This document shows, piece after piece, positions 1,189-21,490 of a stretch of 24,000 nucleotides of DNA (its first letter is position 1; each line of letters starts with the position of its first letter). Origin of the DNA: Rhizobium dioscoreae. GTDB taxonomy: Bacteria > Pseudomonadota > Alphaproteobacteria > Rhizobiales > Rhizobiaceae. A program made the position numbers and the translations under genes. The notes beneath the pieces were generated by a model, which saw only the letters and a list, made by a program, of their open reading frames with translations, made no database searches and had not been told where the DNA came from. The stretch spans positions 8,564 through 32,563 of the forward strand of contig NZ_BLAJ01000014.1 in assembly GCF_009176305.1 (NCBI RefSeq), in the 5' to 3' direction.

Positions 1189-1262
1189 TGGCTGGGAAAC
1201 CTGGATTCGAACCAAGATTAACGGAGTCAGAGTCCGCTGTTCTACCATTGAACTATTTCCCA
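1189..1262 (-). tRNA. tRNA-Gln (anticodon CUG)
   Basis: The reverse complement folds as a 74-nt cloverleaf. Acceptor stem TGGGAAA/TTTCCCA, D stem GTTC/GAAC, anticodon stem GCGGA/TCCGT with loop CTCTGAC (anticodon CTG). Variable loop TAAT, T stem CTTGG/CCAGG with loop TTCGAAT, discriminator G, and an encoded CCA. Confidence 0.9.
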
Positions 1263-1305
1263 ACAGCCGCCGGGCCGAAAGTGCCCCTACGGGGAAAGCA
1301 GGGCC

Positions 1306-1333
1306 TCTATAATCGAATTTGCCACGGATGCAA
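1306..1333 (-). promoter_or_regulatory. Candidate sigma70-type promoter for tRNA-Gln
   Basis: The minus strand reads TTGCAT (1333..1328), a 16-nt spacer, then TATAGA (1311..1306). This sits about 45 nt upstream of the tRNA 5' end. Pattern match only. Confidence 0.3.
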
Positions 1334-1503
1334 ACACTTTAACGCGGGGAAAATGCGATTTTTTGAAAGTCACTTTCATTCAGACATAATAGGTCAGGAA
1401 CCCGCCTGCCGCCACAAGGTTTTCCGCGCAATACTGCATCATTGGCCGAAACGCATCCTTTAGAAGCGATTTCGCTGGTTTAGGCGTCACGCCTTCTATC
1501 GCC

Positions 1504-2139
1504 TCACCAGCGCAACAGGCGCTTGCCAAGGACATATCCGACAGCGGTCACTATCGCGATCGCAATAGGATACCAGAGCAGGACGAAAAGCGGGCTGTCA
1601 TCCGTGCAATTGGAGGCATAGAAGGTCGCGGCGATGCCGCTGGCGGCAAGGCCAGCAACGGCGCCGGCCGCCCCCGGCTTTTCCGGCGCACCATAGCGCA
1701 GCGCGTAAAGGAAGCAGGCAAGTGGCCCGATCGAAAGCAGCGGGATGAGTGTCAGGCAGAAACGGGCATTATGTCCGATCATCCGCGCGCTCCAACTGTC
1801 AGCCGGCATGACGGCCATTTCGACGGCTGCGGCGGCAAGCAGCAGGACAGGCGCCAAGAGCAGCGTCCAGCCCCACAGGCGCAGCGAAGCGCCCGGCCGC
1901 CCGATGCGGAAGACGACGGCGCAGGCTGTTGCGGCAAGCGCGATGGTCACGACGAACTTGAACAGGAAACGGACGGTCTCCATCGCTGTATCGATATCGG
2001 CCCGAAAGCCAATCATGGCGAAGAAGATACCGCCGCTGATCAGGATGCCCGCGACGACCGCCAGGGTCAGGACTTTGCCGATCCGCATCCGGACCGGCGC
2101 GTCCTGCGCCAGAAGATTGATGAGGTCATCGGTTTTCAC
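1504..2139 (-). CDS. nrsF: NrsF-family (DUF1109) anti-sigma-F membrane protein
   Basis: A multi-pass membrane protein whose family-typical N-terminus (V/M)KTDDLINLLAQDAP begins at GTG 2139. It overlaps the upstream sigma-factor stop (2126..2128) by 14 nt, consistent with translational coupling. The ORF track start at 2166 is a TTG and less likely. Six hydrophobic segments; cysteines present in the loops and TM segments. Confidence 0.85.
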   Translation of the reverse strand: MKTDDLINLLAQDAPVRMRIGKVLTLAVVAGILISGGIFFAMIGFRADIDTAMETVRFLFKFVVTIALAATACAVVFRIGRPGASLRLWGWTLLLAPVLLLAAAAVEMAVMPADSWSARMIGHNARFCLTLIPLLSIGPLACFLYALRYGAPEKPGAAGAVAGLAASGIAATFYASNCTDDSPLFVLLWYPIAIAIVTAVGYVLGKRLLRW

Positions 2140-2692
2140 TGGTCTCACTCCGATACAAAGCCGCAAGCATCTTCAACGCGCGGTGCAGCGCCACGCGCAC
2201 CGCCCCTTCCGTCATCTTCAGCCGGTCCGCCGTTTCCCGGACACTGCTTCCCTCGACGGAAATCGAGCGCACGATCGTCTTCTGCGGGTCTTTCAGCAGC
2301 TCCAGCATACGATCGACATCGAACCGGTCCAAGGCGTCGGTATGCTCTTCCGCCTCCAGGAAATCGATCACATCGTCGATCGGTACGCTCATATGCCGCC
2401 CGCGCCGTCTCAGGCTGTCGATCAGCTTGTTGCGCACGATCGTCGACAGCCAGGGTCCGATCGGGCGGGATGAATCCCACGTGCCGCGCTTCAGATGGAT
2501 GGCGAGCAGCACTTCCTGTACTACATCTTCGGCCTCGCTTACCGGCGCACCCAGCTGATCGCAGCGCCGGCGCGCCATGGCGCGCAGATGCGGCGCGACC
2601 GCGGTGAGGAAACGGTGATAGGCCTGCGCATCGCCGCCGATCGCCGCGCGCATCCAGACTGCCCATTCCTCTTCGCGCGCCGAATGATTCAT
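2126..2692 (-). CDS. sigF: ECF (sigma-70 family group IV) RNA polymerase sigma factor, SigF-like
   Basis: 188 aa. Region 2 reads ...AEDVVQEVLLAIHLKRGTWD...PWLSTIVRNKLIDSLRR. The region 4 helix-turn-helix reads ...SVRETADRLKMTEGAVRVALHRALKML. It sits immediately upstream of, and overlapping, an NrsF-type gene. M14 (2653) is an alternative start. Confidence 0.9.
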   Translation of the reverse strand: MNHSAREEEWAVWMRAAIGGDAQAYHRFLTAVAPHLRAMARRRCDQLGAPVSEAEDVVQEVLLAIHLKRGTWDSSRPIGPWLSTIVRNKLIDSLRRRGRHMSVPIDDVIDFLEAEEHTDALDRFDVDRMLELLKDPQKTIVRSISVEGSSVRETADRLKMTEGAVRVALHRALKMLAALYRSETSENR

Positions 2693-2703
2693 CCGACATC
2701 TCC

Positions 2704-2731
2704 TCTACGCGGGACCGCAGGCCTTCGTTAC
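2704..2731 (-). promoter_or_regulatory. Candidate ECF-type promoter upstream of sigF: GTAACG-N16-CGTAGA
   Basis: The minus strand reads GTAACG (2731..2726), 16 nt, then CGTAGA (2709..2704). This is the same architecture and the same -10 hexamer as the element facing the precursor genes. It ends only 11 nt before ATG 2692, which implies a near-leaderless mRNA or use of the downstream start M14. Confidence 0.45.
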
Positions 2732-2908
2732 CGGCAACGGCAACTATTTTTCAAGCCCTTTCGCCTCCGTGGCGGATTCTCCGCAAAATGCATCTGCTAC
2801 CCATGCGCATGCCAGCCTCACCACCATACCTGCTAGGTTATCGCCCGGCGCAGCAGATAGCCGGCGCACTATAAGTGACGCCATCTTGAAAAAAATTCCG
2901 ACGCGGCT

Positions 2909-2936
2909 GTAACATCCGCTCGAGACGCTCCGTAGA
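2909..2936 (+). promoter_or_regulatory. Candidate ECF (SigF-type) promoter of the precursor operon: GTAACA-N16-CGTAGA
   Basis: GTAACA (2909..2914), a 16-nt spacer, then CGTAGA (2931..2936). It lies about 50 nt upstream of the first precursor ATG (2985). A GTAAC-type -35 paired with a CG(T/A)A-type -10 is the usual ECF promoter layout. Confidence 0.55.
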
Positions 2937-2984
2937 TCTCGATGCAAGCCAATGACGGCTCGCATCCATCTAGGAGACAGATCC

Positions 2985-3251
2985 ATGAAGAACAGCATCC
3001 TCACCCTGGCCATTGCTGGCTCGATCGCATCGGCACTTGCATCCGTCGCCGTCCCGGCTTCGGCGGCCGATTCCAAGGAAAAATGCTATGGTGTCGCCCT
3101 CAAGGGTCAGAACGATTGCGCCGCCGGCAAGCATGACTGCGCCGGCAAGTCGACCATGAGCTACGACAAGATGTCCTTCAAGCTCGTTCCCACCGGGACC
3201 TGCACCTCGATGAAGACCCCGAAGGGCCACGGCTCGTTGACCCCGGCCTGA
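2985..3251 (+). CDS. bufA: DUF2282-family (bufferin-type) RiPP precursor, paralog 1, with Sec signal peptide
   Basis: AGGAG RBS at 2971..2975, then ATG 2985. The translation is MKNSILTLAIAGSIASALASVAVPASA|[29 protein letters not shown]...TGTCTSMKTPKGHGSLTPA. It has an A-x-A signal-peptidase site and four conserved Cys, including the family signature [15 protein letters not shown]. The ORF track start at 2952 would add 11 non-signal residues. Confidence 0.85.
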   Translation: MKNSILTLAIAGSIASALASVAVPASAADSKEKCYGVALKGQNDCAAGKHDCAGKSTMSYDKMSFKLVPTGTCTSMKTPKGHGSLTPA

Positions 3252-3298
3252 TCCGAAAACCGGATTGATCGTCAATCATCTCTCGTAAGGAGTTTGTC

Positions 3299-3583
3299 AT
3301 GAGCAAGATGTCCGCACTCGCCCTGGCCGCATCGGTCGCAACGGCGGTGACGCTGGTTGCCGGCGCAACGACAGCATCGGCCGCCGATGCCAAGGAAAAA
3401 TGCTACGGCGTTGCCCTCAAGGGTCAGAACGATTGCGCCGCCGGCCCCGGCACGACCTGCGCCGGCACGTCGAAAGTCGACTATCAGCGCAACTCGTGGA
3501 AGCTGGTTCCCGCCGGGACCTGCGAGACGATCAAGACGCCGAACGGCCACGGCACCCTGATGCAGGGTCCGGCCCCGGTTTGA
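3299..3583 (+). CDS. bufA: DUF2282-family (bufferin-type) RiPP precursor, paralog 2, with Sec signal peptide
   Basis: AAGGAG RBS, then ATG 3299. The translation is [28 protein letters not shown]|[30 protein letters not shown]...[23 protein letters not shown]. It has the same four-Cys scaffold as paralog 1. Confidence 0.85.
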
Positions 3584-3613
3584 CCCTGGTCTGACTGGGC
3601 AGCGCAAACGCGT

Positions 3614-3643
3614 GGGCGACGCAGCCTTTTACAGGCGTCGCCC
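3614..3643 (+). terminator. Stem-loop between the precursor genes and the enzyme genes (possible attenuator or mRNA-stabilising hairpin)
   Basis: GGGCGACGC (3614..3622), a 12-nt loop, then GCGTCGCCC (3635..3643), giving a perfect 9-bp GC-rich stem. There is no U tract after it, so it is not a canonical intrinsic terminator. Confidence 0.4.
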
Positions 3644-3704
3644 GCCTTCCGAACATAAACCGCTTCGTAACTTTGCTGGAATTGCCCCAACCCGGAGGCC
3701 CGCA

Positions 3705-4559
3705 ATGAAACCGTCAGAACTCCCCCGTCGCGCCGGCGTCGGCTTCAAGCCGGAGCATTTTGCCGCGATCAATGGCGCCTCGCAGCCAATCGGCTTCTTC
3801 GAAGTCCATGCGGAAAACTATATGGGCGCTGGTGGTCCGCCACATGCCCAGCTTGGCAGACTGCGCCAGGATTATGCCGTGTCCATCCACGGCGTCGGCC
3901 TCTCCATCGGCTCGATGCAGCCTTTGGACAGCGAACATCTCGCTCGCCTGAAGATCGTCTGCGATCGCTACGAGCCGGAGAGCTTTTCGGAACATCTCGC
4001 CTGGTCGACCCACGACACGACCTTTCTCAACGATCTTCTGCCCCTGCCCTATACCGAAGCGACACTGGCGCAGATCTGCACCCATATCGATCAGGTGCAG
4101 ACATTGCTCGGCCGTCAGATGCTGCTCGAGAATCCGGCTACCTACCTTCTGTTCGAAGAGAGCACAATCGAGGAAACGGAATTTCTGGCCGAGGTCGCCA
4201 GACGTACCGGCTGCGGCTTGCTGCTCGACGTCAACAATGTCTTCGTCGCCGCCATCAATCACCACATGGACGCGCGCGCCTATCTCAAGCGCTTCCCGGT
4301 GCAATGGGTGCGCGAGATCCATCTGAGCGGCCATTCGGAAACCGTCGACGATGCCGGTGCCCCGCTTTTGATCGACAGCCACGATACACCCGTGAAAGAT
4401 CCCGTCTGGGCGCTCTATGAAGAGCTCATCGGCCGGATCGGTCCAGTAGCCAGCCTGGTCGAATGGGATAATGACGTGCCGGAATGGCCGGTTCTAAGGG
4501 CTGAGGCCGAAGCGGCCGATGCCATCCTGAAGCGTGCCGCGGCACGCAGAGCAGCCTGA
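3705..4559 (+). CDS. bufB: DUF692 / MNIO (multinuclear non-heme iron oxidase, MbnB-like) RiPP-modifying enzyme
   Basis: GGAGG RBS at 3694..3698, then ATG 3705. TIM-barrel DUF692 motifs are present: [56 protein letters not shown] and LVEWD. The track start at GTG 3612 adds an Arg/Pro-rich extension and is unlikely. Confidence 0.9.
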
Positions 4560-4569
4560 GGAGGGACCG

Positions 4570-5325
4570 ATGTCTCTCGTCACGCAAAGCGAATTCGCCG
4601 CAGCACTCATCGATCCCGCTCTCGCGGTGCCCGATGGATTGACGGCCTGGAATGGCCCACAGCCGGCACGGCGTTTCGGTGTCTATCGCAATAATGTCGC
4701 CATCGGCCTGATCGGCGCGCTCGCCTCGCGCTTTCCGGCTGCGGAAAGGATCGTCGGCGAGGAATTCTTCGCCGCCATGGCGCATGAGTTCATCCGGCTG
4801 CATCCGCCGCGCTCGCCGCTGTTGCTTGCCTATGGCGATGACTTCCCCGATTTCGCCGGGAGTTTCGAACCGGCGCAGGAAATCCCCTATCTGCCCGATG
4901 TCATGCGACTGGAGGCGCTCCGGGGGCGGGCTTATCATGCGACGGACGCCGTGCCGCTCGATGCGGCGCTCGTGGCGACCATCGAGCCGGCCGGTCTGGC
5001 GGAACTGGCTTTCGTGCCGCATCCTTCCGCCTCGGTCACACGTTCCGCCTATCCAGCCGTCACCATCTGGGCGATGAACACCGGCGAGATCGAACTCGAA
5101 GATATTAGCGATTGGACGGGCGAGCATGCCCTCGTCATTCGCCCGCAGATGATCGTCGAGGTGCATCGCCTGCCGCCGGGTGGCGCAACCTTTCTGGAAG
5201 TGTTGTTTTCGGGCGCCTCCCTTGGTCAGGCCTATGAGACGGCTCTCGCCGAAGCCGCCAATTTCGATCTTTCCGCCAACCTCGCCGGTGCGTTCACGGC
5301 AGGCGCTTTTATGGCCATTCGCTGA
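4570..5325 (+). CDS. bufC: DUF2063 protein (partner subunit of the DUF692 enzyme, MbnC-like role)
   Basis: GAGGAGGG RBS at 4558..4565, then ATG 4570, starting 11 nt after the bufB stop. The N-terminus MSLVTQSEFAAALIDP...RFGVYRNNV is typical of the DUF2063 N-terminal domain. Its position directly after a DUF692 gene is the canonical pairing. Confidence 0.8.
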   Translation: MSLVTQSEFAAALIDPALAVPDGLTAWNGPQPARRFGVYRNNVAIGLIGALASRFPAAERIVGEEFFAAMAHEFIRLHPPRSPLLLAYGDDFPDFAGSFEPAQEIPYLPDVMRLEALRGRAYHATDAVPLDAALVATIEPAGLAELAFVPHPSASVTRSAYPAVTIWAMNTGEIELEDISDWTGEHALVIRPQMIVEVHRLPPGGATFLEVLFSGASLGQAYETALAEAANFDLSANLAGAFTAGAFMAIR

Positions 5326-5343
5326 ACGCCAAGAGGAACGAAG

Positions 5344-5823
5344 ATGCAGAACCAGATGATGACGGCCGCTACGGCCGAACGCGAAACCTTGCCCCAAAGG
5401 TTCTATAGCGGCCTGAAGCTTCTCGACCGCATTCCGCATGACCTGATTGCTCTGATAGCGCGATTGTCGATCGCCGCCGTCTTCTGGCAATCCGGCCAAA
5501 CCAAGGTGGATGGCTGGCACGTGACCGACAATGCCGTCTATCTCTTCCAGACGGAATACAAGCTACCGCTGGTCGATCCCTGGATCGCCGCCCATATCGC
5601 CGCCTTCAGCGAGCACTTCTTTCCTTTTCTGCTGGCCATCGGATTGGCGAGCCGCCTCTCGGCGCTGGCGCTGCTCGGCATGACTCTGGTCATCGAGATC
5701 TTCGTCTACCCCGATGCCTGGCCGACGCATGGCACATGGGCAACCTGCTTTCTGGTGATCATCGCAGGCGGGCCTGGGCGTATCGCGCTCGACCACCTGA
5801 TTGCCAGGCGGTTCACGCACTGA
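5344..5823 (+). CDS. bufD: DoxX-family integral membrane protein
   Basis: 159 aa with four hydrophobic segments and DoxX-like segments RLSIAAVFWQSGQTK and EHFFPFLLAIGLASRLSAL. It is the last gene of the operon, 18 nt after bufC. Confidence 0.8.
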   Translation: MQNQMMTAATAERETLPQRFYSGLKLLDRIPHDLIALIARLSIAAVFWQSGQTKVDGWHVTDNAVYLFQTEYKLPLVDPWIAAHIAAFSEHFFPFLLAIGLASRLSALALLGMTLVIEIFVYPDAWPTHGTWATCFLVIIAGGPGRIALDHLIARRFTH

Positions 5824-5841
5824 GCCTGAGATCGGTAGACG

Positions 5842-5866
5842 GGAGCGCCAATACGAGCGGCGCTCC
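5842..5866. terminator. Hairpin in the convergent intergenic region
   Basis: GGAGCGCC (5842..5849), a 9-nt loop, then GGCGCTCC (5859..5866), an 8-bp perfect stem located 19 nt after the doxX stop. No clear U tract follows. Confidence 0.3.
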
Positions 5867-5880
5867 ATGATGCCGGCTAA

Positions 5881-5903
5881 ATGCGCATTTTCATTCTGCG
5901 CAT
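5881..5903. terminator. Second hairpin in the convergent intergenic region
   Basis: ATGCGCA (5881..5887), the T-rich 9-nt loop TTTTCATTC, then TGCGCAT (5897..5903). It lies between the 3' ends of doxX and the dioxygenase gene. Confidence 0.3.
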
Positions 5904-5945
5904 GTCGTCGTCTGAAAACCACGGCGTACTTCTGCGCGAGATGCC

Positions 5946-6902
5946 TTAACGCAGGACGGGTTCTCCGTGGAAGCGGCGGCGCGACGGCTTCGAGACCCCG
6001 AAACCCACCTCCATCATCAGCCGCGGCTTCTGCGTCGGCACGGTGCCCATATGGAAACCGAAGGGATCCTCGACGAAGCCCGACCCGGCTTTGCCGGTCA
6101 GTGTCAGTGCATTCGCCTCGCCATAATAATCGAGCACTTCGTTTGCCGGATGGCCGACCAGCAAGGTCAGCTGATGACGGACCCGGCGGCGTTTGTGACT
6201 TCCCTTGACGAAGACATGCGGACCAGTGCCCTCATCCACATCGACAAGATTGAAGAAGAATTTCAGCATCCGCCAATCGTCGAGATCGAAGTGGTATTTG
6301 TCGAGCGAAGCGAGGCTGCGGTCGGCTTCGGAAGCCTGGGTCGGGAAGCTCCACCAGATGCGGGTGGTGATCACCTTGGCCTGACCGCCGAGATATTGGC
6401 GGGCGACGTCGATCAGCAGCGGATCGCGCTGGACCGCCATGACCGCTTCGCAATCGAGCGAGCGCTCGAAGAAGTGTCCGCTCAGAATCGGCCGCCCAAA
6501 ACGAGCCTCCGCTTCCTTATGTTCGCCTGCGACGAATTCGAGCTTCCTGTCGAAATTGCCGAAGCAGGCGGTGTTGGCGGCGAATTCTGCGATTTCTCGA
6601 TGAATATGATCCTGCAGCATCAGGCTCGGATAGATGCCATCGGTCCGCAGAGCGTTGACGACGGCGCTGCGCTCGGTGCCGGCAAACATCGAAGCGCCGG
6701 AAACGGGAAGCCTGACGGGCTGCTTGGTGGCCAGCCAATGCATCCGTCGAAACGGTAAGGTTCTGGCCAGCAGGAACATCGGCAGCCATGCCGGGTTTTC
6801 CTTAAGATCGGTCAGGTAGGTGGGTATCCTGACAGCCATTCGCTTGAATCGGCCGCCCCGTCGGGCGATAGACTCCAAGTCTTCTGCCGGGGGATTGTGC
6901 AT
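5946..6902 (-). CDS. PhyH-like Fe(II)/2-oxoglutarate dioxygenase superfamily protein, unknown substrate
   Basis: A protein-like ORF with a facial-triad-like pattern: H-x-D in KYHFDLDD and a distal His in DPFGFHMG, plus GPHVFVKGSH. I prefer ATG 6902 (MHNPPAEDL) over the TTG at 6950. The family assignment rests on motif resemblance only. Confidence 0.6.
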   Translation of the reverse strand: MHNPPAEDLESIARRGGRFKRMAVRIPTYLTDLKENPAWLPMFLLARTLPFRRMHWLATKQPVRLPVSGASMFAGTERSAVVNALRTDGIYPSLMLQDHIHREIAEFAANTACFGNFDRKLEFVAGEHKEAEARFGRPILSGHFFERSLDCEAVMAVQRDPLLIDVARQYLGGQAKVITTRIWWSFPTQASEADRSLASLDKYHFDLDDWRMLKFFFNLVDVDEGTGPHVFVKGSHKRRRVRHQLTLLVGHPANEVLDYYGEANALTLTGKAGSGFVEDPFGFHMGTVPTQKPRLMMEVGFGVSKPSRRRFHGEPVLR

Positions 6903-7372
6903 AGCGATCCTTTCCACGCATTTAAAAGATCCGTGACAGCAGGCCCCCAACCCGCTGACGATAATTCATTGAAACTTTAACATTTATTCGCTCGCGCGAA
7001 TGTCTGCTGCACCGCGGCAAATAGAAATCGGCCGGCCTTGGTCAAGGGGTGAAAAATCAAAACCTGATCGAATGGGTAGAAATTTCTGCAGAAACACGCA
7101 ACGCTTTCGAAACTGTTGACGAATTCGCCCGGAAGGGTTGCTTTTCCGGGGTGGCGGGCGAGACAGACGCAAGGGATTGCGGGAACGGCGTATCGCGTTT
7201 GCCGTTGCTTAGGATAATGGCGCTAAAAATTTGATAGGAGCAAATACCAGAGAAGTTGCGGATAGGCGGCTGCGGTCCATGTCGGCGACAATTTCCATTG
7301 TCTTCTAACAGTCATATTCCTGTTCGCATTATTGGCTAAATGAGCGAGAAAACGTCAAAGAAGGCCCCTTAG

Positions 7373-8290
7373 ATGACAGAAACGAAGACCTTTGAGCCGG
7401 CGGAAGGCATCGTCGATTTCGACGCGGGTGAGGGCGAAAGCCCAACCGTGGTGGAGATGGACGATTATACCAAAAGCCTTGCCCAGGCGAAGGCCAAGTC
7501 CGTCAAGCTGGTCGACGCCATCACCGGTCAGGTGCTCAAGAAAAAAGATGCCGTGCATGTCGATGACCTCCGCCCGTCGCTCGCGGATTTCATGCGGCTG
7601 AAGCATCCGGAGCTTCGTGCCGACGATTATATCAGCCGCAAGGTCATGGACGATTATCGCGCTCAATATATCGCCGAGCTGCTGACGGTGGAGCGCGGCG
7701 AGCTTTCCAACCTCGAGGACGAGGTCGTCGAAAGCCTGAAGACACATGACACGCTGGCGGAAAACATCGAAGAGGACTATGAGGACCACCGCTCGATCGG
7801 CGACCGCATGGCCGATGGCGTCGCGTCCTTCGGCGGCAGTTGGACCTTCATCATCTCCTTCTGTCTGTTTCTCGCCGTCTGGATGGGGATCAATCTTGCC
7901 ATGGGCGAAAAGCAGGCCTTCGATGCCTATCCGTTTATCCTGCTGAACCTCGTTCTATCGACCATCGCAGCACTCCAGGCGCCGATCATCATGATGAGCC
8001 AGCGCCGCCAGGAAGAAAAGGACCGCCTGCGTGCCCTCAACGACTACAAGGTCAACCTAAAAGCCGAACTGGAAATCCGTCACCTGCATGAAAAGGTCGA
8101 CCACCTCCTCAATCGTCAGTGGGAGCGCCTGACCGAAATCCAGCAGATCCAGATCGAGATGATGCTGGAACAGGCCAAGGCGGCGACGCGGGCGATCAAG
8201 GCCAATAAGGCAGCGAAGGCAAAGACCAGTGCGCTGAAGAGCCTCTTTACCAAGGTCAAGGATTCCGATCCGGACGATTCCGTTAACTGA
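7373..8290 (+). CDS. DUF1003 domain-containing membrane protein
   Basis: 305 aa. A soluble N-terminal part is followed by two TM helices with the DUF1003-typical core FGGSWTFIISF...FDAYPFILLNLVLSTIAALQAPIIMMSQRRQ..D. The C-terminal tail is coiled-coil and Lys-rich. Confidence 0.8.
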   Translation: MTETKTFEPAEGIVDFDAGEGESPTVVEMDDYTKSLAQAKAKSVKLVDAITGQVLKKKDAVHVDDLRPSLADFMRLKHPELRADDYISRKVMDDYRAQYIAELLTVERGELSNLEDEVVESLKTHDTLAENIEEDYEDHRSIGDRMADGVASFGGSWTFIISFCLFLAVWMGINLAMGEKQAFDAYPFILLNLVLSTIAALQAPIIMMSQRRQEEKDRLRALNDYKVNLKAELEIRHLHEKVDHLLNRQWERLTEIQQIQIEMMLEQAKAATRAIKANKAAKAKTSALKSLFTKVKDSDPDDSVN

Positions 8291-8389: not shown

Positions 8390-9607
8390 TCACCGCGGCT
8401 CCCCTTGCCGGTGCCGCGCTCCGTCCTTCTGTCGATCTGCCCGCTGGCGGTTTGCGAAGAGAACCGGCACGCATAGGAGATAAAGCGAAGCACCAAGTAC
8501 CCAGACCAGTCCAGGAAAGACATGCCTCGAGGCGAAGTAGATCTCGCTGATCGCCAGAGGCGCGATCATCGATGCGAGGCTCGTCAGGCTGGTCAGCACA
8601 CCTTGCAAACGCCCTTGTTCGTCCGGACCCACGCGCTTGGTCATCAAGGACAGCAGCGCCGGCTGGCCGACCCCGCCGAGGCAGAAGAGTGGAAACAGAA
8701 AAAAGACGAGAAATCCCCGTGTGACGAAAGCGATGGCGACATAAGCCGCGCCGTCGCAGACAATCGCGACCATCAGCGCGCAGCGTTCGCCCCAGCGCTC
8801 ACTCAAGGGACCGGCGACAAAAGCCTGGGCGAGCGCATGGAACAAGCTGAAACCAGCGAGAGACAGGCCGACGGTCGCCGTATCCCAGCCGAACTTGTCC
8901 TGACCATAGAGCACCCAGACGGTGCCGCCGACCTCGCCGACAATGGCAAGGAGGAGGGACATGAAGAGCAGCGGCACCAGCGCTGGAAACGCACCGATCC
9001 AGCGCAGCGCCGCCAGCGGATGAAAGGCCGCCGGATCGATCTGCTCGGGCTTCACCGTTCTTGTCTCGGGCAGCGCGACAAGCGCAACGACGAAATTCAT
9101 CATCACCAGAATCGCGGCCGCGACGAAAGGAGCACGTAGCGAAATCGTCCCGAGTAATCCTCCGATGACAGGCCCCAGGATGAAGCCGATGCCGAAACAG
9201 GCACTGAGAAGCCCGAAAGCGCGCGTCCGGCGCTGCTCCGGCGTGATGTCGGCGAGGCAGGCACTCGCAACCGCGGCATTCGCTGCGGTCAGGCCGGCGA
9301 TGGCACGGCCAAGGAACAGCCACCAGAAGCCTGGCGCCCATGCCATGAAGGCGTAGTCGATCATGCCACCCGCCAACGAAGCGAGTAGCACGGGTCGACG
9401 GCCGTAACGATCGCTCAGCGTCCCGAGAATCGGAGAGGCGAGGAACTGCAATGCCGCATAGAGCGACAGGAAAGCGCCGTAGCGCCAACCGAGTTCGGGC
9501 GAATGCGCCACGCTCAGCAGAAGCTCCGGCAGGATTGGCATAACAAGGCCGGTGCCGGCGGCATCGAGAACGACGACCGCCAAGATAGTCAAAAGCATCT
9601 TGTTCAT
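8390..9607 (-). CDS. tetA: MFS tetracycline/H+ antiporter-type efflux pump (TetA family)
   Basis: 405 aa, 12-TM MFS protein. The N-terminus LDAAGTGLVMPILPELL and motif A GTLSDRYGRRPVLL closely resemble class A/C TetA. It is divergent from a TetR gene. Confidence 0.88.
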   Translation of the reverse strand: MNKMLLTILAVVVLDAAGTGLVMPILPELLLSVAHSPELGWRYGAFLSLYAALQFLASPILGTLSDRYGRRPVLLASLAGGMIDYAFMAWAPGFWWLFLGRAIAGLTAANAAVASACLADITPEQRRTRAFGLLSACFGIGFILGPVIGGLLGTISLRAPFVAAAILVMMNFVVALVALPETRTVKPEQIDPAAFHPLAALRWIGAFPALVPLLFMSLLLAIVGEVGGTVWVLYGQDKFGWDTATVGLSLAGFSLFHALAQAFVAGPLSERWGERCALMVAIVCDGAAYVAIAFVTRGFLVFFLFPLFCLGGVGQPALLSLMTKRVGPDEQGRLQGVLTSLTSLASMIAPLAISEIYFASRHVFPGLVWVLGASLYLLCVPVLFANRQRADRQKDGARHRQGEPR

Positions 9608-9681: not shown

Positions 9682-10287
9682 ATGAAAATCGATCGAAGCC
9701 AGATCGTCGATGCGGCGCTGACCATTCTGAACGAAGTCGGCATCGACGGCCTGTCGACGCGGCTGATCGCCCAGCGCCTCGGCGTGCAGCAGCCTGCGCT
9801 CTATTGGCATTTCAAGGGCAAGCAGGCCCTTCTTGCGGCTATGAATGCCGAGATGCTGAGGCGAAATCACTCCCGAAACATGCCCCTTGCCGGAGAGACC
9901 TGGCAGGAATTCCTGCGCGCCAATGCCCGCAGCTTTCGCTCGGCCCTGCTGGCTTGGCGCGACGGCGCTCGCGTTCATGCGGGAACCGAGATCGATGCTC
10001 CGCACCTCGATGCAATCGAAGCGCAGCTCGAATGCCTGCATGCCGCCGGTTTTGATCCCGAGAAGGCTCTGGGGCTACAGATCGCGATCAGTCGCTACGT
10101 GGTGGGGTGCGTGCTTGAGGAGCAGGCGGACGAAGCCACCTCCAGGGATGGGTCGGCAATTGATGCCGTCGCCGAAAGCCATCCGAACCTTGCCAAAGCT
10201 TTGGCGGTCTATCGCGCCAAAGGCCATGAAGCCTTGTTCGAAACCGGTCTCGACCTGCTGATCGGCGGGGCCGATGCCGGCAAATAG
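9682..10287 (+). CDS. tetR: Tetracycline repressor TetR
   Basis: 201 aa. The N-terminal helix-turn-helix ALTILNEVGIDGLSTRLIAQRLGVQQPALYWHFKGKQALL closely resembles the TetR class A-D DNA-binding domain. Confidence 0.92.
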   Translation: MKIDRSQIVDAALTILNEVGIDGLSTRLIAQRLGVQQPALYWHFKGKQALLAAMNAEMLRRNHSRNMPLAGETWQEFLRANARSFRSALLAWRDGARVHAGTEIDAPHLDAIEAQLECLHAAGFDPEKALGLQIAISRYVVGCVLEEQADEATSRDGSAIDAVAESHPNLAKALAVYRAKGHEALFETGLDLLIGGADAGK

Positions 10288-11422: not shown

Positions 11423-11713
11423 ATGATCGAAGTCCGCCAAACCACCGTTTTTTCAGAATGGCTCAAGGCTCTCCGAGACAGAAATGCCGCTTCGCGCATT
11501 GCCGTCAGAATCCGGCGTCTTGAGCTCGGCAATCCCGGCGATATCAAAGCCGTGGGTGATGGTGTGAGTGAAATGCGGATCGATTACGGACCAGGATATC
11601 GTTTGTATTTGACTTATACGGGCCGCACCTTGGTCATTCTTTTATGTGGCGGCGACAAGTCCTCGCAGACGCGCGATATTGCCCAGGCGAAGAAAATGGC
11701 GAAGGAGATCTGA
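11423..11713 (+). CDS. Type II toxin, RelE/ParE superfamily (addiction module killer protein, HigB-like)
   Basis: MIEVRQTTVFSEWLKALRDRNAASRIAVRIRRLELGNPGDIKAVGDGVSEMRIDYGPGYRLYLTYTGRTLVILLCGGDKSSQTRDIAQAKKMAKEI matches my recollection of the 'putative addiction module killer' family. I prefer ATG 11423 over GTG 11405, which lies inside the operator. Confidence 0.85.
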   Translation: MIEVRQTTVFSEWLKALRDRNAASRIAVRIRRLELGNPGDIKAVGDGVSEMRIDYGPGYRLYLTYTGRTLVILLCGGDKSSQTRDIAQAKKMAKEI

Positions 11714-11714
11714 C

Positions 11715-12026
11715 ATGGTGCTAGAAACGACCCGCTTTGATGTTCTGGATTACCTGAAAACGCCGGAGGAACGCTTCGCTTATATCGAAGCTGCTTTTGA
11801 GGATGGCGACCCCTCGCTGATTGCTCATGCGCTTGGCGATGTTGCTCGTTCCATCGGCATGAGTGCTGTTGCCAAGGAAGCAGGTGTAACGCGGGAAGCG
11901 CTCTATAAAGCCCTGAGTGAGCACGGCGATCCGAAGCTTTCGACGCTGATCGGTGTCGCCAGAGCGCTCGGCGTGAAACTCTCCGTGTCGCCCACCTCGT
12001 CGGACGAGCCCTCGAAGGCGGCTTGA
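11715..12026 (+). CDS. Type II antitoxin, addiction module antidote protein (HigA-like, XRE helix-turn-helix)
   Basis: ATG 11715 lies 1 nt after the toxin stop (TGA 11711..11713). The translation is MVLETTRFDVLDYLKTPEERFAYIEAAFEDGDPSLIAHALGDVARSIGMSAVAKEAGVTREALYKALSEHGDPKLSTLIGVARALG. It has the family-typical helix-turn-helix and the toxin-first gene order. Confidence 0.85.
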   Translation: MVLETTRFDVLDYLKTPEERFAYIEAAFEDGDPSLIAHALGDVARSIGMSAVAKEAGVTREALYKALSEHGDPKLSTLIGVARALGVKLSVSPTSSDEPSKAA

Positions 12027-12317
12027 TTACGAGGTGGCGTGAAGATTTCCTTCGTCGCTGTCTTATAGGGCTGAAGCCGCAGCCTATGCCGAGACTTGGG
12101 CCATCGGCGCGGCTTGGCTCCCCCTCCCTCATCCGCCCTGCCGTTTCCACGGCGGACGAGGGCAAGGGCCGTTTGCTGGCTGCCGAGGCAGATCAGGACA
12201 GCGACTGCCATGCAAGGAACATGATCAATGTCTCCGAGGCAGCTGAGTAATCAGCCGTCGACAGTCGTAGTTTCTCCCCGCTGCGGCCGCTTGCTTTCTT
12301 CGTATCTTGCCCGTTGT

Positions 12318-12662
12318 TCAGCCCGTGGAGCGCGGTCTCCTGATCGTTGCTGGGCGGATCTTCTTCCAATCCAAACCAGCCAGAAGTGCCATGAGCTGAG
12401 CATGGTTGAGGCGGATACGCCCCGCCGTCGCTGCCGGCCGGCAAAAGCCATTCTCCTCGAGAATTTTCGAATAAAGGCAGACCCCGCTGCCATCCCACCA
12501 AACGATCCGGACACGGTCCGCCCGTTTCGACCGGAAGACATAAAGCGCGCCGTTTAACGGGTCGAGGCCACCATCTCTGACCAGAGCCATCAATGATGCC
12601 GCACCTTTGCGGAAGTCGACAGGCTGGCACGACACATAAACAATAACACCAGACGCGATCAT
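12318..12662 (-). CDS. tnpB: IS66-family accessory protein TnpB (IS66 Orf2)
   Basis: 114 aa. The translation VYVSCQPVDFRKGAASLMALVRDGGLDPLNGALYVFRSKRADRVRIVWWDGSGVCLYSKILE is a near-textbook IS66 Orf2 sequence. Confidence 0.9.
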   Translation of the reverse strand: MIASGVIVYVSCQPVDFRKGAASLMALVRDGGLDPLNGALYVFRSKRADRVRIVWWDGSGVCLYSKILEENGFCRPAATAGRIRLNHAQLMALLAGLDWKKIRPATIRRPRSTG

Positions 12663-13066
12663 GCCTGACGAACCGCCCGCAGGATCTTCACCAGACGTTC
12701 AGTCGCAAGATCGCCGCCTACGCGCACTACAGCATCACCGATGACAATCTCAACCGCAGAACCGGCGACCGCCTCGACCTGTGCAAACCGAACCTGTGTA
12801 TCAACTGACTTCGAGAGAGGAGCAATCGATCCCGAGGCGATTGCTTTGCGACGCCAATCGTAAAGCTGAGAGGGATCCAGACCCGCTCCACGGGCAATCG
12901 CTGATACATTCGCCCCCGGCTCCAGAGTTGCGGCAACCAAACGGGCCTTCTCATCATGCGGCCAGTCTCTCGGCTTGCGGCGCGTCGCGATTGGTGTCGC
13001 CGTCAAAAGCTCGAAGGCTCGGGTCTGATTCACAGTATCACTCATAGGACTCTCCGCATGACTCAT
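12659..13066 (-). CDS. tnpA: IS66-family accessory protein TnpA (IS66 Orf1, helix-turn-helix)
   Basis: 135 aa. It reads RRKPRDWPHDEKARLVAATLEPGANVSAIARGAGLDPSQLYDWRRKA, then ...VRFAQVEV..., and ends with ...LVKILRAV. Its stop overlaps the tnpB ATG. M8 (13045) is an alternative start. Confidence 0.85.
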   Translation of the reverse strand: MSHAESPMSDTVNQTRAFELLTATPIATRRKPRDWPHDEKARLVAATLEPGANVSAIARGAGLDPSQLYDWRRKAIASGSIAPLSKSVDTQVRFAQVEAVAGSAVEIVIGDAVVRVGGDLATERLVKILRAVRQA

Positions 13067-13418: not shown

Positions 13419-16400
13419 TCAGAATCTCACCTTCAGATCGGCCCGCAATCCATGCTCTCGCGCGTTGCGAGCCAGTGAGCCGGAATATGAGAGCCCCAGC
13501 ATCGCCCCGTTAGTAAGATTGAGATCAAGACCGGTCTCGATGACGGCCACGTCCTCAGCAATCGGCACGCCAGCTACCGTGTATGGATTGCCGCCCGTAA
13601 ATGCGAGTGACGCGGTCGGCACTTTGTCGCCAAAGGTGTGACGCCAACCAACCATGGCGCGTGCCGTAGCCTCGGCATCCCCGAGCGCAAATCGGGTGTT
13701 CCCCCTGAGGCCTAGCGTCGAATAGGTGACGTCCTCTCCGCCGCGTGATCCGTTGAGAGCCGCATCTCCGCCCTTCTCTGTAAAGTTGTTGCTATTGTAA
13801 TTTACATGAGCGAGACCAGCAAACGGCTCCAACGAGAGCGCCTCCCCTTCGAGCCGATATCCAGCCTCGCCGAAAATCTGGGCGGTGGCTGCGTGATAGC
13901 GACCTCTTTCCGTTTCGGAAAAGCCCGGAAAAGCGACAGACCGGGTCGTATCGACATTGTGCCAGGAATAAGCGGTTCCGAAACGCAAACCCAAGCGGCC
14001 AATCTCGGACCCACCATAGGCACCGATATGGTATGTGTCGACGCCAGCGTTGGAGGCGCGGCTTGCGAGATCATTGGAGGCATGGTCATAGCCGGTGACA
14101 AAGCCGAAGCGCCAATCATCGTTAACGCTCACGTCAGCGCCCAACAGAAACCCACCAATCGAACGATCGAACGATTCTGCATTGCCATTACCGTCCCATC
14201 GCCCCCAGGAGCCGAAGCCACGCGCCCAGGCGGTAACGGCAGTTCCTCTAACCGGGGCCGTGTCCGGCCCGGATGGCCGCGCACCTGCCGAGTCGATGTC
14301 CAAAAAGGCAGCGCGCGATCGATCAATCGCCGCCTCGCGAATGAAGCGGCTGTCCTCCAATATCGCCCCCTGGAGCGAGGCATGAATTTCACCTGATAAC
14401 GCGTCCAGTGCCCGCTGTGCGTCGCTCGCGTCCGGAATCGCCGCCAAGGCCTGGTTGACCAAATTGCCTTGCCCGCTACTCTCTAATCCATTGGCCGCCA
14501 CGCACTGATTGGATGTGCGGGCGACATCACAGTACCTGACCGCGTTGCGCGTGACGTCGACAAAAACGTTTTCGGGATCGTAGGAGAGCGACAAATTCAC
14601 AAAAGGCATATTCTGCGTCAGCTGCTCAAAGGTGCCCGTCACCCCATCATCAGCCGAGAGGATGACCCAACGACTGCCCGGAGTGAAAGTACCGGCGGAC
14701 TTCACCACATCAACCGTTCCACCATGAATAGTTGCTGCACCCGTCGCTCCGATCAAGTCCCCGGCCAAGCTCGGGGTGATGTCTACAGCATAGGTCGAGC
14801 CTTCATCAAATGTGATATCGCCATTGACATGGAGGGTTCCCGGCGAATGACCGGGAGAGATGGTGCCGCCTTGAGCAATAGTCGTTGTTCCGATGGTGCC
14901 GGTGCCGCCAAGTTTGCCGCCGGAAGCGATGTTGAGCGTTCCGCCGAGCTTACCATCGACGAAGAGCGTGCCGCTGGAGATCGTTGTTGTACCGGTAAAG
15001 GCGCTCGAGTCGGCCGAAAGGTTGATGCTGCCAGAGCCAAGCTGCCGTATGTTGCCGCCGCCACTGATCCTACCGGCAAAGACAAGATCGTCGGAACGGT
15101 CGAAGGCGAGCGTTGCATTGTCAACGACGTCGCCCACAATTGAGCCTGATGCGCCGCCAACGCCGAGCTTCAAGGTTCCGTCGCTGATTATCGTATTGCC
15201 GGCATAGCTGTTGGTTCCCCTCAGCGTGAGCGTGCCGGCCCCCGCTTTGACGAGTTCCCCCACACCGGTGATAACTCCGTCCACCCGAAGATCCGCATCC
15301 GTCTGAAGCGTGCCGCCACCGGCATCCAAGCTAACTGTCCGCAGGGTTGCAATATCGGATGTATTTCTAAGGCTGCCGCCGTCGAGGGTTAGTCCACCGG
15401 CTTCGGTACCAAGATTAGAGTCCGAAGAAATCAGGAGTGTTCCGTCTCTGATCGTCGTGCCGCCGGCATAGGTGTTGGCGCCCGTCAGCGTCAGCGTGCC
15501 GCTGCCGGTCTTGACGAGCGCGCCACCGCCGCTGATGACACCGCTCGCCGTAAGGTCGGAGTCTGTTTGAAGCGTGCCGCCACCGCCATTGAGCGTCATG
15601 TTGCGGGCGGTGTCGAACGCTGCGGTTGTTTGAAGCACGCCTGCGTCAAACGTGAGCGCGCCCGCCGTCAGGCCCAGATTGGCGTCGGAGGAAACCCGCA
15701 CGACGCCGCCCAGAATGCTCGTTCCGCCGGCATAGGTGTTTACTCCTGATAAGATGAGTGTCCCCGCATCCGTCTTCACCAACCCGCCGCTTCCAGAAAT
15801 TTGGGCGTTTATAGTCGCCACCACGCCCGGGTCGGTCCTGATCGTGGTCGCCGCGTCGCTGGCGGTCAGGGTATCTCCGTCGATCACATAGCCATCGCTC
15901 ATGAACTGAATGCCCTTGAAACCAACGGCACCAGCGGAATTGTCAATGGTGACAGTACCGGCGCTACCCCCAAATACGGCGAAATCCTGCCGCCAAATGC
16001 CATTGATCGCGCCATTCGCATCGGTCCAATTGCGGCTTGAGGCGTCCCACCTTCCGCTGCCGCCGGTTATGGTGCCGTCATCGTGGCGAGCGACATCGCC
16101 ACCGTCCCAAAAGCCGAGTGTGGCGCCGACGCTGGAGATGAGATTTATCTGACCTGCAATATTGGTTTGGACATAGAGGTCGCTCGAACTGACGCCGCTG
16201 GGTAGAGCGCCCAGGGCCAGGCCGTTATCCGTCAGTCCCCCGCCATAGTTCATCAACCGATAGACACCAGCGCTGAAGCCGCCGACGTCGATGACGTTCA
16301 ACGTGCCATCCAGGGTAAGGTTGCCAGTGACCTCGATCAAATCATTGACACCGCCGCCGATTACGCCCGGGCGACCGAGCTGATAATTGAGAATGGAACC

Positions 16401-18173: not shown

Positions 18174-18406
18174 CCCATCCCCAACACGTCTTCGCAGACT
18201 GACTGCCCCACGCCCCAATGTCAGCACCGTGCTTGCGCTTTCTCGTCAAACGCGGAAGTGCCTTTCAATTCCCTCTATCATGAGGAGCATTTTACAGCCA
18301 GAGAATAACATCAAAATTGCGCAACATGCATCTTCGGCGCGCATTCCGCGACTATGTTACGGCACCCAGCCGCTCGCGGTTGAGCAATTGCTACTCCAAA
18401 CATTCG

Positions 18407-18673
18407 TTATTGAGGCCGGACTTCACACGATAGGTAATTGGAAAAGTAAGCGGCCATGGCCATGTTCAAAGGCAATATTTTTGAACGACCCTTGGCAGGG
18501 GCCGCTAAACGCCGCCGAAGCACGCCGGTACCAATAGCGATATGAGGTTGCGCGATGCCGACGACATAGAGCAGGAGCGGCGTCGCCAGGATCGAGCCTC
18601 CGCCACCGAGCAGGCCAAACATGAAGCCAACGATTCCACCGGAGCCAACGGCCGGCAAAATGGAGAAGCTCAT
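18407..18673 (-). pseudogene. Truncated TauE/SafE-family (DUF81) anion permease gene
   Basis: The first ~50 aa, MSFSILPAVGSGGIVGFMFGLLGGGGSILATPLLLYVVGIAQPHIAIGT, form a typical TauE/SafE N-terminus. The sequence then becomes Arg-rich and non-membrane, and stops at 88 aa. The family is normally ~240-260 aa. The ATG is ATGA-coupled to the upstream gene. Confidence 0.55.
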
Positions 18674-19101
18674 GCCCTACTGCTCCAAACCCGGTCGTGG
18701 AATGTCATGCCGATCAGCATGGCAACCACGAATAGCACCGTCTGCGGGATACCAATCGACAGGGAGGCGACGGCAGGGCCGGGACAGAAGCCGCCAATCC
18801 CCCAGCCGAGGCCGAACAAGGCGGAACCGACGACGAGCGGCGAGTCAATCTTCCGGTTCCCAGGTACATGGAAGCTGTCGTCGAACGCGGGATGTCTTAG
18901 CCGCTTCATGACCTGCACGCCGATGAAGGCGACGATGACTGCGCCGCCGAGGACGAAGGCAAGACTTGGATCCCAGTTACCGAAGACGTCGAGAAAACCC
19001 TGGACGCGTATGGGGTTCAGCATGCCGGAAAGCGACAGGCCGAAGCCGAAGGCTATGCCGGACAAGAGCGCGGCGAGGAACTGGTAGATGTTTCTGTTCA
19101 T
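18670..19101 (-). CDS. YeeE/YedE-family (sulfur-transport-like) membrane protein, second half-size paralog
   Basis: ATG 19101 overlaps the upstream stop as ATGA. The translation is MNRNIYQFLAALLSGIAFGFGLSLSGMLNPIRVQGFLD...GLGWGIGGFCPGPA, including the conserved GFCPG motif. The track's longer start at 19308 adds an Arg-rich extension that overlaps the upstream gene. Confidence 0.8.
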   Translation of the reverse strand: MNRNIYQFLAALLSGIAFGFGLSLSGMLNPIRVQGFLDVFGNWDPSLAFVLGGAVIVAFIGVQVMKRLRHPAFDDSFHVPGNRKIDSPLVVGSALFGLGWGIGGFCPGPAVASLSIGIPQTVLFVVAMLIGMTFHDRVWSSRA

Positions 19102-19508
19102 AGTCCGAGCCCTCGAAGAACCGTGACCGCGATCACGCCGGTTGACAGGAAGGTGGCGACGGCCATCATCGATCGCGGCGACAAGCGCGCAAGCCCGACT
19201 ACACCATGGCCACTGGTGCATCCGGATCCCATGCGCGAGCCGAAGCCGACGAGGAGGCCGGCGACGATAGTCAGCGGCCAGTTCGCGGTAATCTCGACGG
19301 TTGGCCACCCGCCGAATGCCAGTAGGTAGCCCAACGGGCCAAGCAGCAGCCCGAGCACGAAGGCGAGATTTGTAGCCAGCCCGACGCCTTGGGCCAGACG
19401 TCCGATTATGCCGCTGATCCCCGCGACCCGGCCGTTTAGAAGAAGGAGCATGGCGGCTGAAGCGCCGATCAGCATGCCTCCAGCCAGAGATTGAGAATAG
19501 GCGCTCAT
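19098..19508 (-). CDS. YeeE/YedE-family (sulfur-transport-like) membrane protein, first half-size paralog
   Basis: 136 aa. It reads GMLIGASAAMLLLLNGRVAGISGI...GFGSRMGSGCTSGHG, including the conserved GCTSGHG motif. It is ATGA-coupled to bigR. Confidence 0.8.
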   Translation of the reverse strand: MSAYSQSLAGGMLIGASAAMLLLLNGRVAGISGIIGRLAQGVGLATNLAFVLGLLLGPLGYLLAFGGWPTVEITANWPLTIVAGLLVGFGSRMGSGCTSGHGVVGLARLSPRSMMAVATFLSTGVIAVTVLRGLGL

Positions 19509-21141: not shown

Positions 21142-21172
21142 GACTGGCTCCGTAGTCCATAACAATATACAT

Positions 21173-21186: not shown

Positions 21187-21229
21187 TAATATAATAATCT
21201 CAAGCCTCTTGAGGAGCTTTATTGTCGCG

Positions 21230-21427: not shown

Positions 21428-21490
21428 GGGCCCAGGTCAGGTCGGAGACATTCAACTGACTCAATATTTAACCCGTGGAAAAAATAACAT

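Follow-up and report, generated by a model that had tools for sequence, protein, structure and literature searches.

Among bacterial responses to copper stress, bufferins were recognised only recently and are very widespread. The products of Caulobacter CC3254-3257 were shown in 2024 to be bufferins, which are Sec-exported small proteins in which two central Cys residues are converted to 5-thiooxazoles by BufB together with BufC, and they bind copper 1:1 and protect the cells against copper stress (PMC11626156). In Sinorhizobium meliloti, the RpoE7-EcfR7 pair, which belongs to group 16 of the extracytoplasmic function (ECF) sigma factors (ECF16), was mapped in 2018 and activates the divergent genes SMb20530-SMb20527, all four of these targets being sigma-activated (PMC6180224). 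A 2025 survey of the MNIO landscape describes sigma/NrsF genes in Buf1 clusters (PMC12452194). Copper is relevant to soil- and plant-associated rhizobia by way of copper fungicides and host defences. Here we analysed a stretch of 24,000 nucleotides (nt) from contig NZ_BLAJ01000014.1 of Rhizobium dioscoreae, hereafter the window. According to the list of open reading frames (ORFs) and profile searches, positions 1504-5823 of the window hold seven genes, namely a divergent sigma/nrsF pair on the minus strand opposite bufA_a-bufA_b-bufB-bufC-doxX on the plus strand. We are confident that this locus is a Buf1-type bufferin biosynthetic operon under a divergent, self-activating ECF16 sigma/anti-sigma pair of the SigF/NrsF type; the family assignments exceed curated cutoffs.

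The two precursor genes, bufA_a (2985-3251, plus strand; 88 amino acids) and bufA_b (3299-3583, plus strand; 94 amino acids), matched the DUF2282 model (PF10048) at 79.9 and 93.2 bits, respectively, against a cutoff of 22.4. The product of bufB (3705-4559, plus strand), the MNIO/DUF692 maturase, reached 385.3 bits on the NCBIfam model NF050167 MNIO_BufB, the cutoff of which is 310, and 350 bits on PF05114. Downstream on the same strand, bufC (4570-5325) encodes the DUF2063 partner (PF09836, 92.2 bits; cutoff 27.2), and bufD/doxX (5344-5823) encodes a DoxX-family membrane protein (PF07681, 62.2 bits; cutoff 23.6). On the minus strand, the ECF16 (SigF/RpoE7-like) sigma gene (2126-2692) matched Sigma70_r2, r4_2 and Sigma70_ECF, and scored 289 bits on the NF009165 equivalog (cutoff 198); nrsF (1504-2139) encodes a membrane anti-sigma factor of the DUF1109/NrsF family (PF06532, 188.5 bits, E = 1.7e-55). 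The nrsF product did not reach the cutoff of the narrow NCBIfam NrsF equivalog (101.7 bits vs 300). An earlier sequence-only reading of this DNA had assigned the genes to DUF2282, DUF692, DUF2063, DoxX, DUF1109 and ECF sigma families, and these positions and families were borne out by profile hidden Markov model searches, above curated thresholds. For comparison, we used 80 loci of other species fetched with BufB as the query, together with one plasmid locus, giving 82 loci with the window. The same seven-gene architecture was found in 11 of the fetched loci and in an Ancylobacter contig.

Start codons were chosen by their Shine-Dalgarno sequences. The sequence AGGAG lies 8 nt ahead of the bufA_a ATG, and GGAGG, found immediately after the bufB stop codon, precedes the bufC ATG at 4570, leaving a bufB-bufC gap of 10 nt. 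Longer ORF starts at 2952 (bufA_a), 3612 (bufB) and 4534 (bufC) were rejected, since they lie upstream of ATGs that are preceded by Shine-Dalgarno sequences and match database proteins. For nrsF, the likely start is a GTG at 2139; the longest ORF extends to 2166, and family matches start at ORF residues 11-19. The reading frames of the sigma gene and nrsF overlap by 14 nt when counted from GTG 2139, or by 41 nt when counted from the longest ORF, and with the PF06532 and Sigma70 domains this agrees with the divergent, overlapping ECF sigma and NrsF/DUF1109 pair seen previously. The tight spacing that had been ascribed to the operon holds between bufB and bufC, but not between bufA_b and bufB, which are separated by a gap of 121 nt holding a hairpin.

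The proteins read from the ATG starts are exact matches to the Rhizobium dioscoreae entries GES53143-GES53148; exact NCBI proteins were found for the sigma factor (188 amino acids), BufC (251 amino acids), DoxX (159 amino acids) and the bufA_a product (GES53144.1). NCBI names the bufA_b product "BufA1 family periplasmic bufferin-type metallophore", and close homologues of bufA_a are named likewise in NCBI and UniRef; the exact bufA_a protein is labelled only 'DUF2282 domain-containing' by NCBI. The Pfam labels now attached to the collection are BufA1 and HvfC_N. A megablast of the locus against plasmids gave partial matches only, of 72-78%, in replicons of Rhizobium, Shinella and Agrobacterium, the annotation of which is incomplete. 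The novelty first claimed for the locus was overrated, as a Rhizobiaceae equivalent had been mapped in 2018 (PMC6180224), sigma/NrsF-linked Buf1 clusters have been described, and the proteins are publicly labelled BufA1.

The BufB protein passed the NCBI MNIO_BufB equivalog and failed the HvfB, ApyH, MbnB and ChrH models. It aligned with the solved MNIO structures 3BWW, TglH (8HCI) and MbnB (7DZ9, 7TCR), and kept the motifs IHG, SEH, LEN, DVNN, IHLSGH, DSH and EWD, from which the metal-ligand residues are read as H62, H97, E142, D175, N178, H206, D224, H226 and E253. A sequence search of the PDB with BufC returned no match. A hydropathy scan of DoxX showed four hydrophobic segments.

Profile searches placed regions 2 and 4 in the ECF sigma factor, the reading frame of which overlaps that of the polytopic membrane anti-sigma factor. 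The hydropathy scan of NrsF gave five clear hydrophobic segments and one weaker one, as compared with the six expected. NrsF carries two Cys residues 50 residues apart (C137/C187 in the ORF; C128/C178 when counted from the GTG), and this pair was invariant in 35 of 35 aligned relatives. In Caulobacter NrsF, two conserved Cys residues with the same 50-residue spacing, C131 and C181, control the release of SigF (PMC3511200; also PMC8315932).

The published SigF/ECF16 promoter reads GTAACC-N16-CGAA or (T/C)GTAAC-N17-CGAA (PMC3511200, PMC8315932). A putative ECF16 promoter of sigF-nrsF, GTAACG-N16-CGTA (equivalently GGTAAC-N17-CGTA), was found on the minus strand at 2706-2731, with its 3' end 13 nt from the sigma ATG, and a putative ECF16 promoter of the buf operon, TGTAACA-N16-CGTA, lies on the plus strand at 2909-2934 and ends 50 nt ahead of the bufA_a ATG. 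Both lie inside the 292-bp divergent intergenic region, with equal spacing and in the correct orientation, one for each divergent operon. The pattern GTAAC-N15-18-CGWA has these 2 matches in the 24-kb window vs 0.36 expected by chance, a soft statistic, given that the pattern was opened to W at the third -10 position only once CGTA had been seen. The association across loci is the stronger test: the motif precedes the first bufA in 27 of the 34 loci with a divergent sigF vs 1 of 42 without sigF (Fisher p = 4.6e-13), and a minus-strand motif faces sigF in 26 of the 34 sigF-linked loci. The -10 sequence CGTA is used by a clade of Rhizobium, Shinella and Ciceribacter, and CGAA by more distant loci. 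The presence of the ECF16 motif ahead of each divergent operon, and its association with sigF among related loci, lend comparative support to the prediction that buf operon expression depends on the neighbouring sigma factor. In generic sigma-70 promoter and terminator scans of 1300-6100, counts were not above those of shuffled sequences, and one weak sigma-70-like site in this region overlaps the ECF16 -35 element.

We observed a perfect 9-nt inverted repeat (TTTTTCAAG / CTTGAAAAA) at 2747-2755 and 2885-2893, which brackets the 177-bp spacer between the ECF16 -35 elements and might be bound by another regulatory protein. A weak sigma-70-like sequence, TTGAAA-18-TAACAT, shares positions with the right arm of the repeat. 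A longer spacer of this 177-bp type is common to the closest relatives, and other Rhizobium loci have a spacer of about 113 bp.

The sequence-only reading had also pointed to an A-x-A signal-peptidase site and four Cys residues in both small proteins, and direct reading with a hydropathy scan agreed: each precursor has a hydrophobic N-terminus ending in ASA|AD, exactly four Cys and a shared signature segment. The signal peptides, as judged by inspection and the hydropathy scan, begin with an N-region that contains Lys, followed by a hydrophobic core (residues 5-20), with the ASA|AD cleavage sites at residues 25-27 and 26-28. For bufA_a, the predicted signal peptide spans residues 1-27 and leaves a core of 61 amino acids, with a Cys spacing of 10/6/20 and the loop C-AAGKHD-C; for bufA_b, it spans residues 1-28 and leaves a core of 66 amino acids, with a Cys spacing of 10/7/20 and the loop C-AAGPGTT-C. 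The bufA_b spacing is identical to that of Caulobacter BufA1 (Cys12/23/31/52). The BufA2 model gave weak matches only (26 and 22 bits vs a cutoff of 60), which excludes the Buf2 type.

Two adjacent DUF2282 genes were present in 12 of the 82 loci, the window included, and in the Ancylobacter contig, and all of these 13 tandem loci have a divergent sigF-nrsF. The mature parts of the two precursors are about two-thirds identical (41 of 61 aligned positions), and bufA_a and bufA_b are not recent duplicates. The downstream copy is marked by the loop C-AAG[PA]GT[TS]-C with the seven-residue spacing (hereafter x7); of the 68 loci with a single precursor, 67 have this type. The upstream copy is marked by the loop C-[AK]AG[KM]HD-C, which is one residue shorter and has an invariant His two residues ahead of CysIII (hereafter x6-His); it stands first in the operon in every tandem locus. 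The 10/6/20 spacing with the loop His was found in 119 of the 120 best database relatives of bufA_a, and all four Cys of bufA_a are invariant. The ratios of nonsynonymous to synonymous substitution rates against eleven orthologues each, 0-0.23 for bufA_a and 0.02-0.21 for bufA_b, indicate purifying selection on both genes. When the loci were ranked by BufB identity to the window, lineages with x7 only (Shinella, Rhizobium sp. R634) fell between tandem loci; because of this interleaving, the x6-His paralog is accessory and has probably been lost repeatedly. An AlphaFold2 model of bufA_a built on a 20-sequence alignment was too poor for geometry (mean predicted local distance difference test score 46, predicted template modelling score 0.25).

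The segment carrying CysI and CysII is identical in the two precursors, which is consistent with recognition of both by a single BufB/BufC pair, and the anatomy of the locus suggests that one enzyme pair modifies both. In Caulobacter, recognition of the bufferin is independent of its signal peptide (PMC11626156). Since the first 18 core codons of the two paralogs encode identical residues, we considered gene conversion; however, single-copy loci of distant genera also conserve this segment, so purifying selection is enough to account for the identity, and gene conversion was not retained. The presence of two distinct precursors, which had been seen as a departure from the single-precursor model operon, stands as an observation and less so as a novelty, since the 2025 MNIO survey describes some clusters in which precursor genes stand in tandem, which implies that an MNIO can have more than one substrate (PMC12452194). 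Tandem-precursor clusters are already known, and it is the x6-His paralog class with its fixed upstream position that is modestly new. Among other loci, a Zhengella locus, L079 (5585+), has the x6-His type (AAGAHS loop) as its only precursor, adjoining bufB, and two sigF-linked loci, L051 and L081, have no recognisable bufA ahead of bufB within the fetched DNA.

The gap between bufA_b and bufB holds a GC-rich stem-loop at 3612-3645 (plus strand), with an 11-bp stem and a 12-nt loop, placed between the precursor genes and bufB. We surveyed the best 44-nt hairpin within 90 nt after the last bufA stop codon in 79 loci. The mean stability was -22.9 kcal/mol, as compared with -16.6 kcal/mol for dinucleotide shuffles (Wilcoxon p of about 2e-12) and -16.75 kcal/mol for random segments of the same loci (p of about 5e-11), and a value of -20 kcal/mol or lower was reached in 59 of the 79 loci. 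The stem sequence varies between genera, and in a consensus 9-bp stem among nine Rhizobiaceae, compensatory changes were found at 3 of the 9 pairs. No comparable structure was seen between the two bufA genes of tandem loci (-1.4 to -8.9 kcal/mol). An Rfam scan of the window found tRNA only and no family at the hairpin. We found no internal ECF16 promoter ahead of bufB; a GTAACT at about 3669 has no -10 partner and is absent in locus L002. Precursor-proximal hairpins are known in lantibiotic operons. By analogy with these, and judging from its position, the hairpin is probably a leaky terminator or a 3'-end stabiliser that would make precursor mRNA exceed enzyme mRNA. Keyword searches of two key papers on bufferins, limited to their main text, found no mention of the x6-His class, its fixed upstream position or the post-precursor hairpin. 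Modest novelty also attaches to the conservation of this hairpin and to the comparative evidence in favour of sigF-dependent promoters. At the other end of the operon, possible hairpins lie between convergent genes at 5829-5878 (plus strand), with the core GGAGCGCC-9 nt-GGCGCUCC at 5842-5866; this signal is weak (z = -2.0 for the 151-nt region), has no T-run and was missed by the terminator scan.

These data suggest a mechanism, the chemical steps of which are modelled on Caulobacter. Envelope stress, from copper or another thiol-reactive metal or an oxidant, would inactivate NrsF via its two conserved Cys residues and free the sigma factor. The sigma factor would then fire the two GTAAC-N17-CGTA promoters, amplifying the sigma/anti-sigma pair and transcribing the buf operon. 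Both precursor genes lie 5' of the strong hairpin, which would probably terminate or stabilise most transcripts, so that precursors exceed enzymes. BufB, an iron enzyme, together with BufC would oxidise CysII and CysIII of each precursor to 5-thiooxazoles; CysI and CysIV would form a disulfide, and the Sec signal peptide would be removed on export. The two mature proteins, of about 61 and 66 residues, would bind excess periplasmic copper. In this scheme, the formation of thiooxazoles, the binding of copper and the function of the NrsF Cys residues are proposed by homology to the Caulobacter system; the two thiooxazoles, the CysI-CysIV disulfide and 1:1 copper binding are known only for Caulobacter Buf1.

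Several observations weigh against this interpretation. Besides the soft within-window motif count, the -10 element, CGTA, is one base off the published CGAA. The bufA_a loop between CysII and CysIII, the Cys residues that are modified, is one residue shorter. The hairpin has no U-tract and was not flagged by the terminator scan, and the fold of the whole 136-nt bufA_b-bufB region was not better than that of shuffled sequences (z = -1.2); it is the local stem-loop, recurring from locus to locus, that carries the signal and not the fold of the region as a whole. Caulobacter can do without DoxX (PMC11626156), and a DoxX gene at the operon end is a frequent but not an obligatory part of Buf1 clusters. 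The inducers in Caulobacter are copper, cadmium and chromate, but other ECF16 systems respond to hypochlorite, and the equivalent S. meliloti promoters were not induced by H2O2, Cd or chromate (PMC6180224), so the trigger may not be copper.

One possible explanation for the latter observations is that the locus serves in defence against oxidative or chlorine stress and not against copper, with ECF16 sensing an oxidant and the thiol-rich products, with DoxX, scavenging periplasmic oxidants. ECF16 systems of Azospira and Brucella do respond to hypochlorite, but these regulons control MsrPQ and Met-rich peptides, not buf genes. The lack of a response of S. meliloti RpoE7 to Cd or chromate would fit an oxidant, although the S. 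meliloti promoters are not induced by H2O2 either. Caulobacter SigF was first tied to oxidative stress, and DoxX homologues are linked to oxidative and sulphur stress; however, the Caulobacter buf operons are Cu-induced and protect against Cu by tight 1:1 binding. We regard an oxidant-defence role as unlikely, and prefer the copper-binding bufferin operon. It is more improbable still that the hairpin is a full terminator or a generic repeat, with bufBCD-doxX on their own promoter and the precursors and enzymes in separate transcription units. The 121-nt gap with its very stable stem would suit such a split, and GC-rich palindromes are common in alphaproteobacterial intergenic DNA; yet the stem sequence differs between genomes, so the hairpin is not a dispersed repeat. 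Moreover, 3646-3704 contains no ECF16 motif and no convincing sigma-70 match, and relatives such as L002 and L016 have little or no spacer 3' of the hairpin. The four S. meliloti genes rise together on RpoE7 over-expression, and Caulobacter CC3254-57 form one unit, as we propose for the Rhizobium genes.

The two precursors raise further alternatives to a shared bufferin role. The upstream DUF2282 protein might not be a BufB/BufC substrate at all, and might share the promoter as an unmodified Cys/His periplasmic metal or redox buffer, or as a chaperone for the true bufferin. Its altered loop, which bears the modified Cys, and its NCBI label of merely 'DUF2282 domain-containing' would agree with this, whereas the surroundings of CysI and CysII are identical to those of bufA_b, all four Cys are invariant, and close homologues are named BufA1 by NCBI/UniRef. 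The gene, moreover, is without exception part of the operon, immediately preceding the canonical precursor gene and lying 5' of the hairpin, and in L079 the x6-His type is the sole precursor adjoining bufB. We consider a non-substrate role very unlikely, and continue to take both proteins as predicted bufferin precursors. A division of labour between them is the alternative with the most in its favour, and it remains doubtful: the x6-His paralog might form a thiooxazole plus imidazole site for a different metal, or a different copper oxidation state, than the x7 paralog. Each paralog keeps its loop signature from Rhizobium to Pseudoxanthobacter, Aestuariivirgaceae and Ancylobacter, the x6 spacing with the His is kept in nearly all of the best bufA_a relatives (119 of 120), purifying selection on both copies argues against simple redundancy, and Caulobacter Buf1 binds Cu2+ via N/S ligands near the heterocycles. 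However, the x6 type is dispensable, because the nested lineages of Shinella and Rhizobium sp. R634 keep only x7. A broader proposal would combine an ancient, always-upstream x6-His paralog, acting as a second, chemically distinct metal site for another metal or oxidation state, with a hairpin that sets the precursor-to-enzyme stoichiometry in bufferin operons generally; we hold this to be somewhat less likely than the division of labour alone.

The locus adds no new principle and is a member of a described kind. It nevertheless offers a natural test of whether one MNIO/DUF2063 pair serves two substrates, and of whether a His-bearing loop variant alters metal selectivity. For the regulation of such clusters, simple and testable points of entry are given by the sigF-linked promoter motif and the conserved hairpin.

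Other features were noted in the window. A tRNA-Gln(CTG) gene lies at 1189-1262 (minus strand), about 240 nt beyond the 3' end of nrsF. The G+C content of 1-1000 is 0.51, as compared with about 0.60, and the only ORF tested there (717-968) has no Pfam match; this low-G+C segment may be the edge of an integrated element. On the other side of the operon, a gene at 5946-6950 (minus strand), converging on doxX, encodes a PhyH-like (phytanoyl-CoA dioxygenase family) protein by a weak match (24 bits vs a cutoff of 22), and 7373-8290 (plus strand) encodes a DUF1003 membrane protein, the N-terminal region of which is long and acidic; no link of these two genes to the buf operon was apparent. A divergent pair at 8390-9607 (minus strand) and 9682-10287 (plus strand) encodes a TetR-family repressor and a major facilitator superfamily efflux pump, which scored 460.9 bits, slightly short of the cutoff of 475, on the Tet(A)/(B)/(C) tetracycline-efflux model and is apparently a chromosomal Tet-like pump. 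The region 11646-13066 holds mobile-element debris, with a gene for an addiction-module antidote-like helix-turn-helix protein at 11646-12026 (plus strand) and IS66-family orf1 (12659-13066, minus strand) and orf2 (12318-12662, minus strand), in which no full transposase was seen. A gene at 13419-18227 (minus strand) encodes an autotransporter of 1602 amino acids with six PATR repeats and a C-terminal beta-barrel, bearing a distant EprS-type likeness (430 bits vs a cutoff of 1700). A sulfide-detoxification-type cluster at 18670-21165 (minus strand) lies in the same window as the DoxX/thiol-chemistry operon, and contains an ArsR-family helix-turn-helix regulator gene (19505-19852), a gene for the bifunctional sulfur transferase/dioxygenase Blh (19843-21165; 776 bits vs a cutoff of 625) and genes for two YeeE/YedE-like half transporters (DUF6691, Sulf_transp). 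Finally, 21000-23873 has a G+C content of 0.49-0.50 and encodes a 617-amino-acid protein that carries a DUF6862 domain and, by a weak match, a C39-like peptidase domain, followed 3' by an ORF of 164 amino acids with no family match, an arrangement that resembles a horizontally acquired toxin/immunity-like pair.

In comparison with known systems, methanobactin MbnA/MbnB/MbnC shares the MNIO superfamily, the conserved iron-ligand motifs and the conversion of Cys to copper-binding heterocycles. Methanobactin is, however, a secreted copper-acquisition peptide with oxazolone-thioamide groups, a leader peptide in place of a Sec signal, and MbnC in place of DUF2063; the MbnB model reached only 50.6 bits (cutoff 325) at our locus, and no MbnC or MbnA match was present among the profile matches of the seven locus proteins. 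The oxazolin, fontiphorin and gonophorin systems (HvfABC-type 'captophorins') likewise use an MNIO enzyme and DUF2063, often with DoxX, and their products are copper-binding, with 5-thiooxazoles formed on Cys. In place of DUF2282 proteins, they have EGKCG repeat peptides as precursors; bufA_a and bufA_b have no EGKCG repeats, and the Hvf models scored below cutoff at the locus (HvfB 228.5 bits vs 360, HvfC 38.2 vs 142, HvfX 47.2 vs 80). The gig operons of Cupriavidus metallidurans and Legionella pneumophila combine DUF2282, DUF692, DUF2063 and DoxX genes as the Rhizobium operon does; they are four-gene, transition-metal-induced operons that differ in having other regulators and a single precursor per operon, and in Cupriavidus the operon is a minor contributor to metal resistance.

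The rpoE7-ecfR7/SMb20530-SMb20527 locus of S. meliloti, the closest relative that has been studied, also comes from the Rhizobiaceae and shares the divergent layout. The promoters are nearly identical, that of SMb20530 being TGTAACATCGC...GCGAAT (CGAAT), as compared with TGTAACATCCGC...CGTAG in Rhizobium. The S. meliloti locus has a single DUF2282 gene, and was described before bufferins were recognised. The buf1 operon of Caulobacter vibrioides (bufA1B1C1D1, CCNA_03363-03366 / CC3254-3257) with its adjacent sigF-nrsF has one precursor, in contrast to the two of the Rhizobium locus, the first of which has the 10/6/20 spacing with the loop His; the -10 element is CGTA in Rhizobium and CGAA in Caulobacter, and the Rhizobium locus is known from sequence alone. 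Otherwise, the two share the same five protein families, gene order and regulator pair, the same promoter type (GTAACC-N16-CGAA) before both units, the same NrsF Cys pair and, between BufA1 and bufA_b, the 10/7/20 spacing. The likeness to the SigF/NrsF-controlled bufferin operon of Caulobacter, recognised at the outset from the gene content, is accurate (PMC11626156, PMC3511200).

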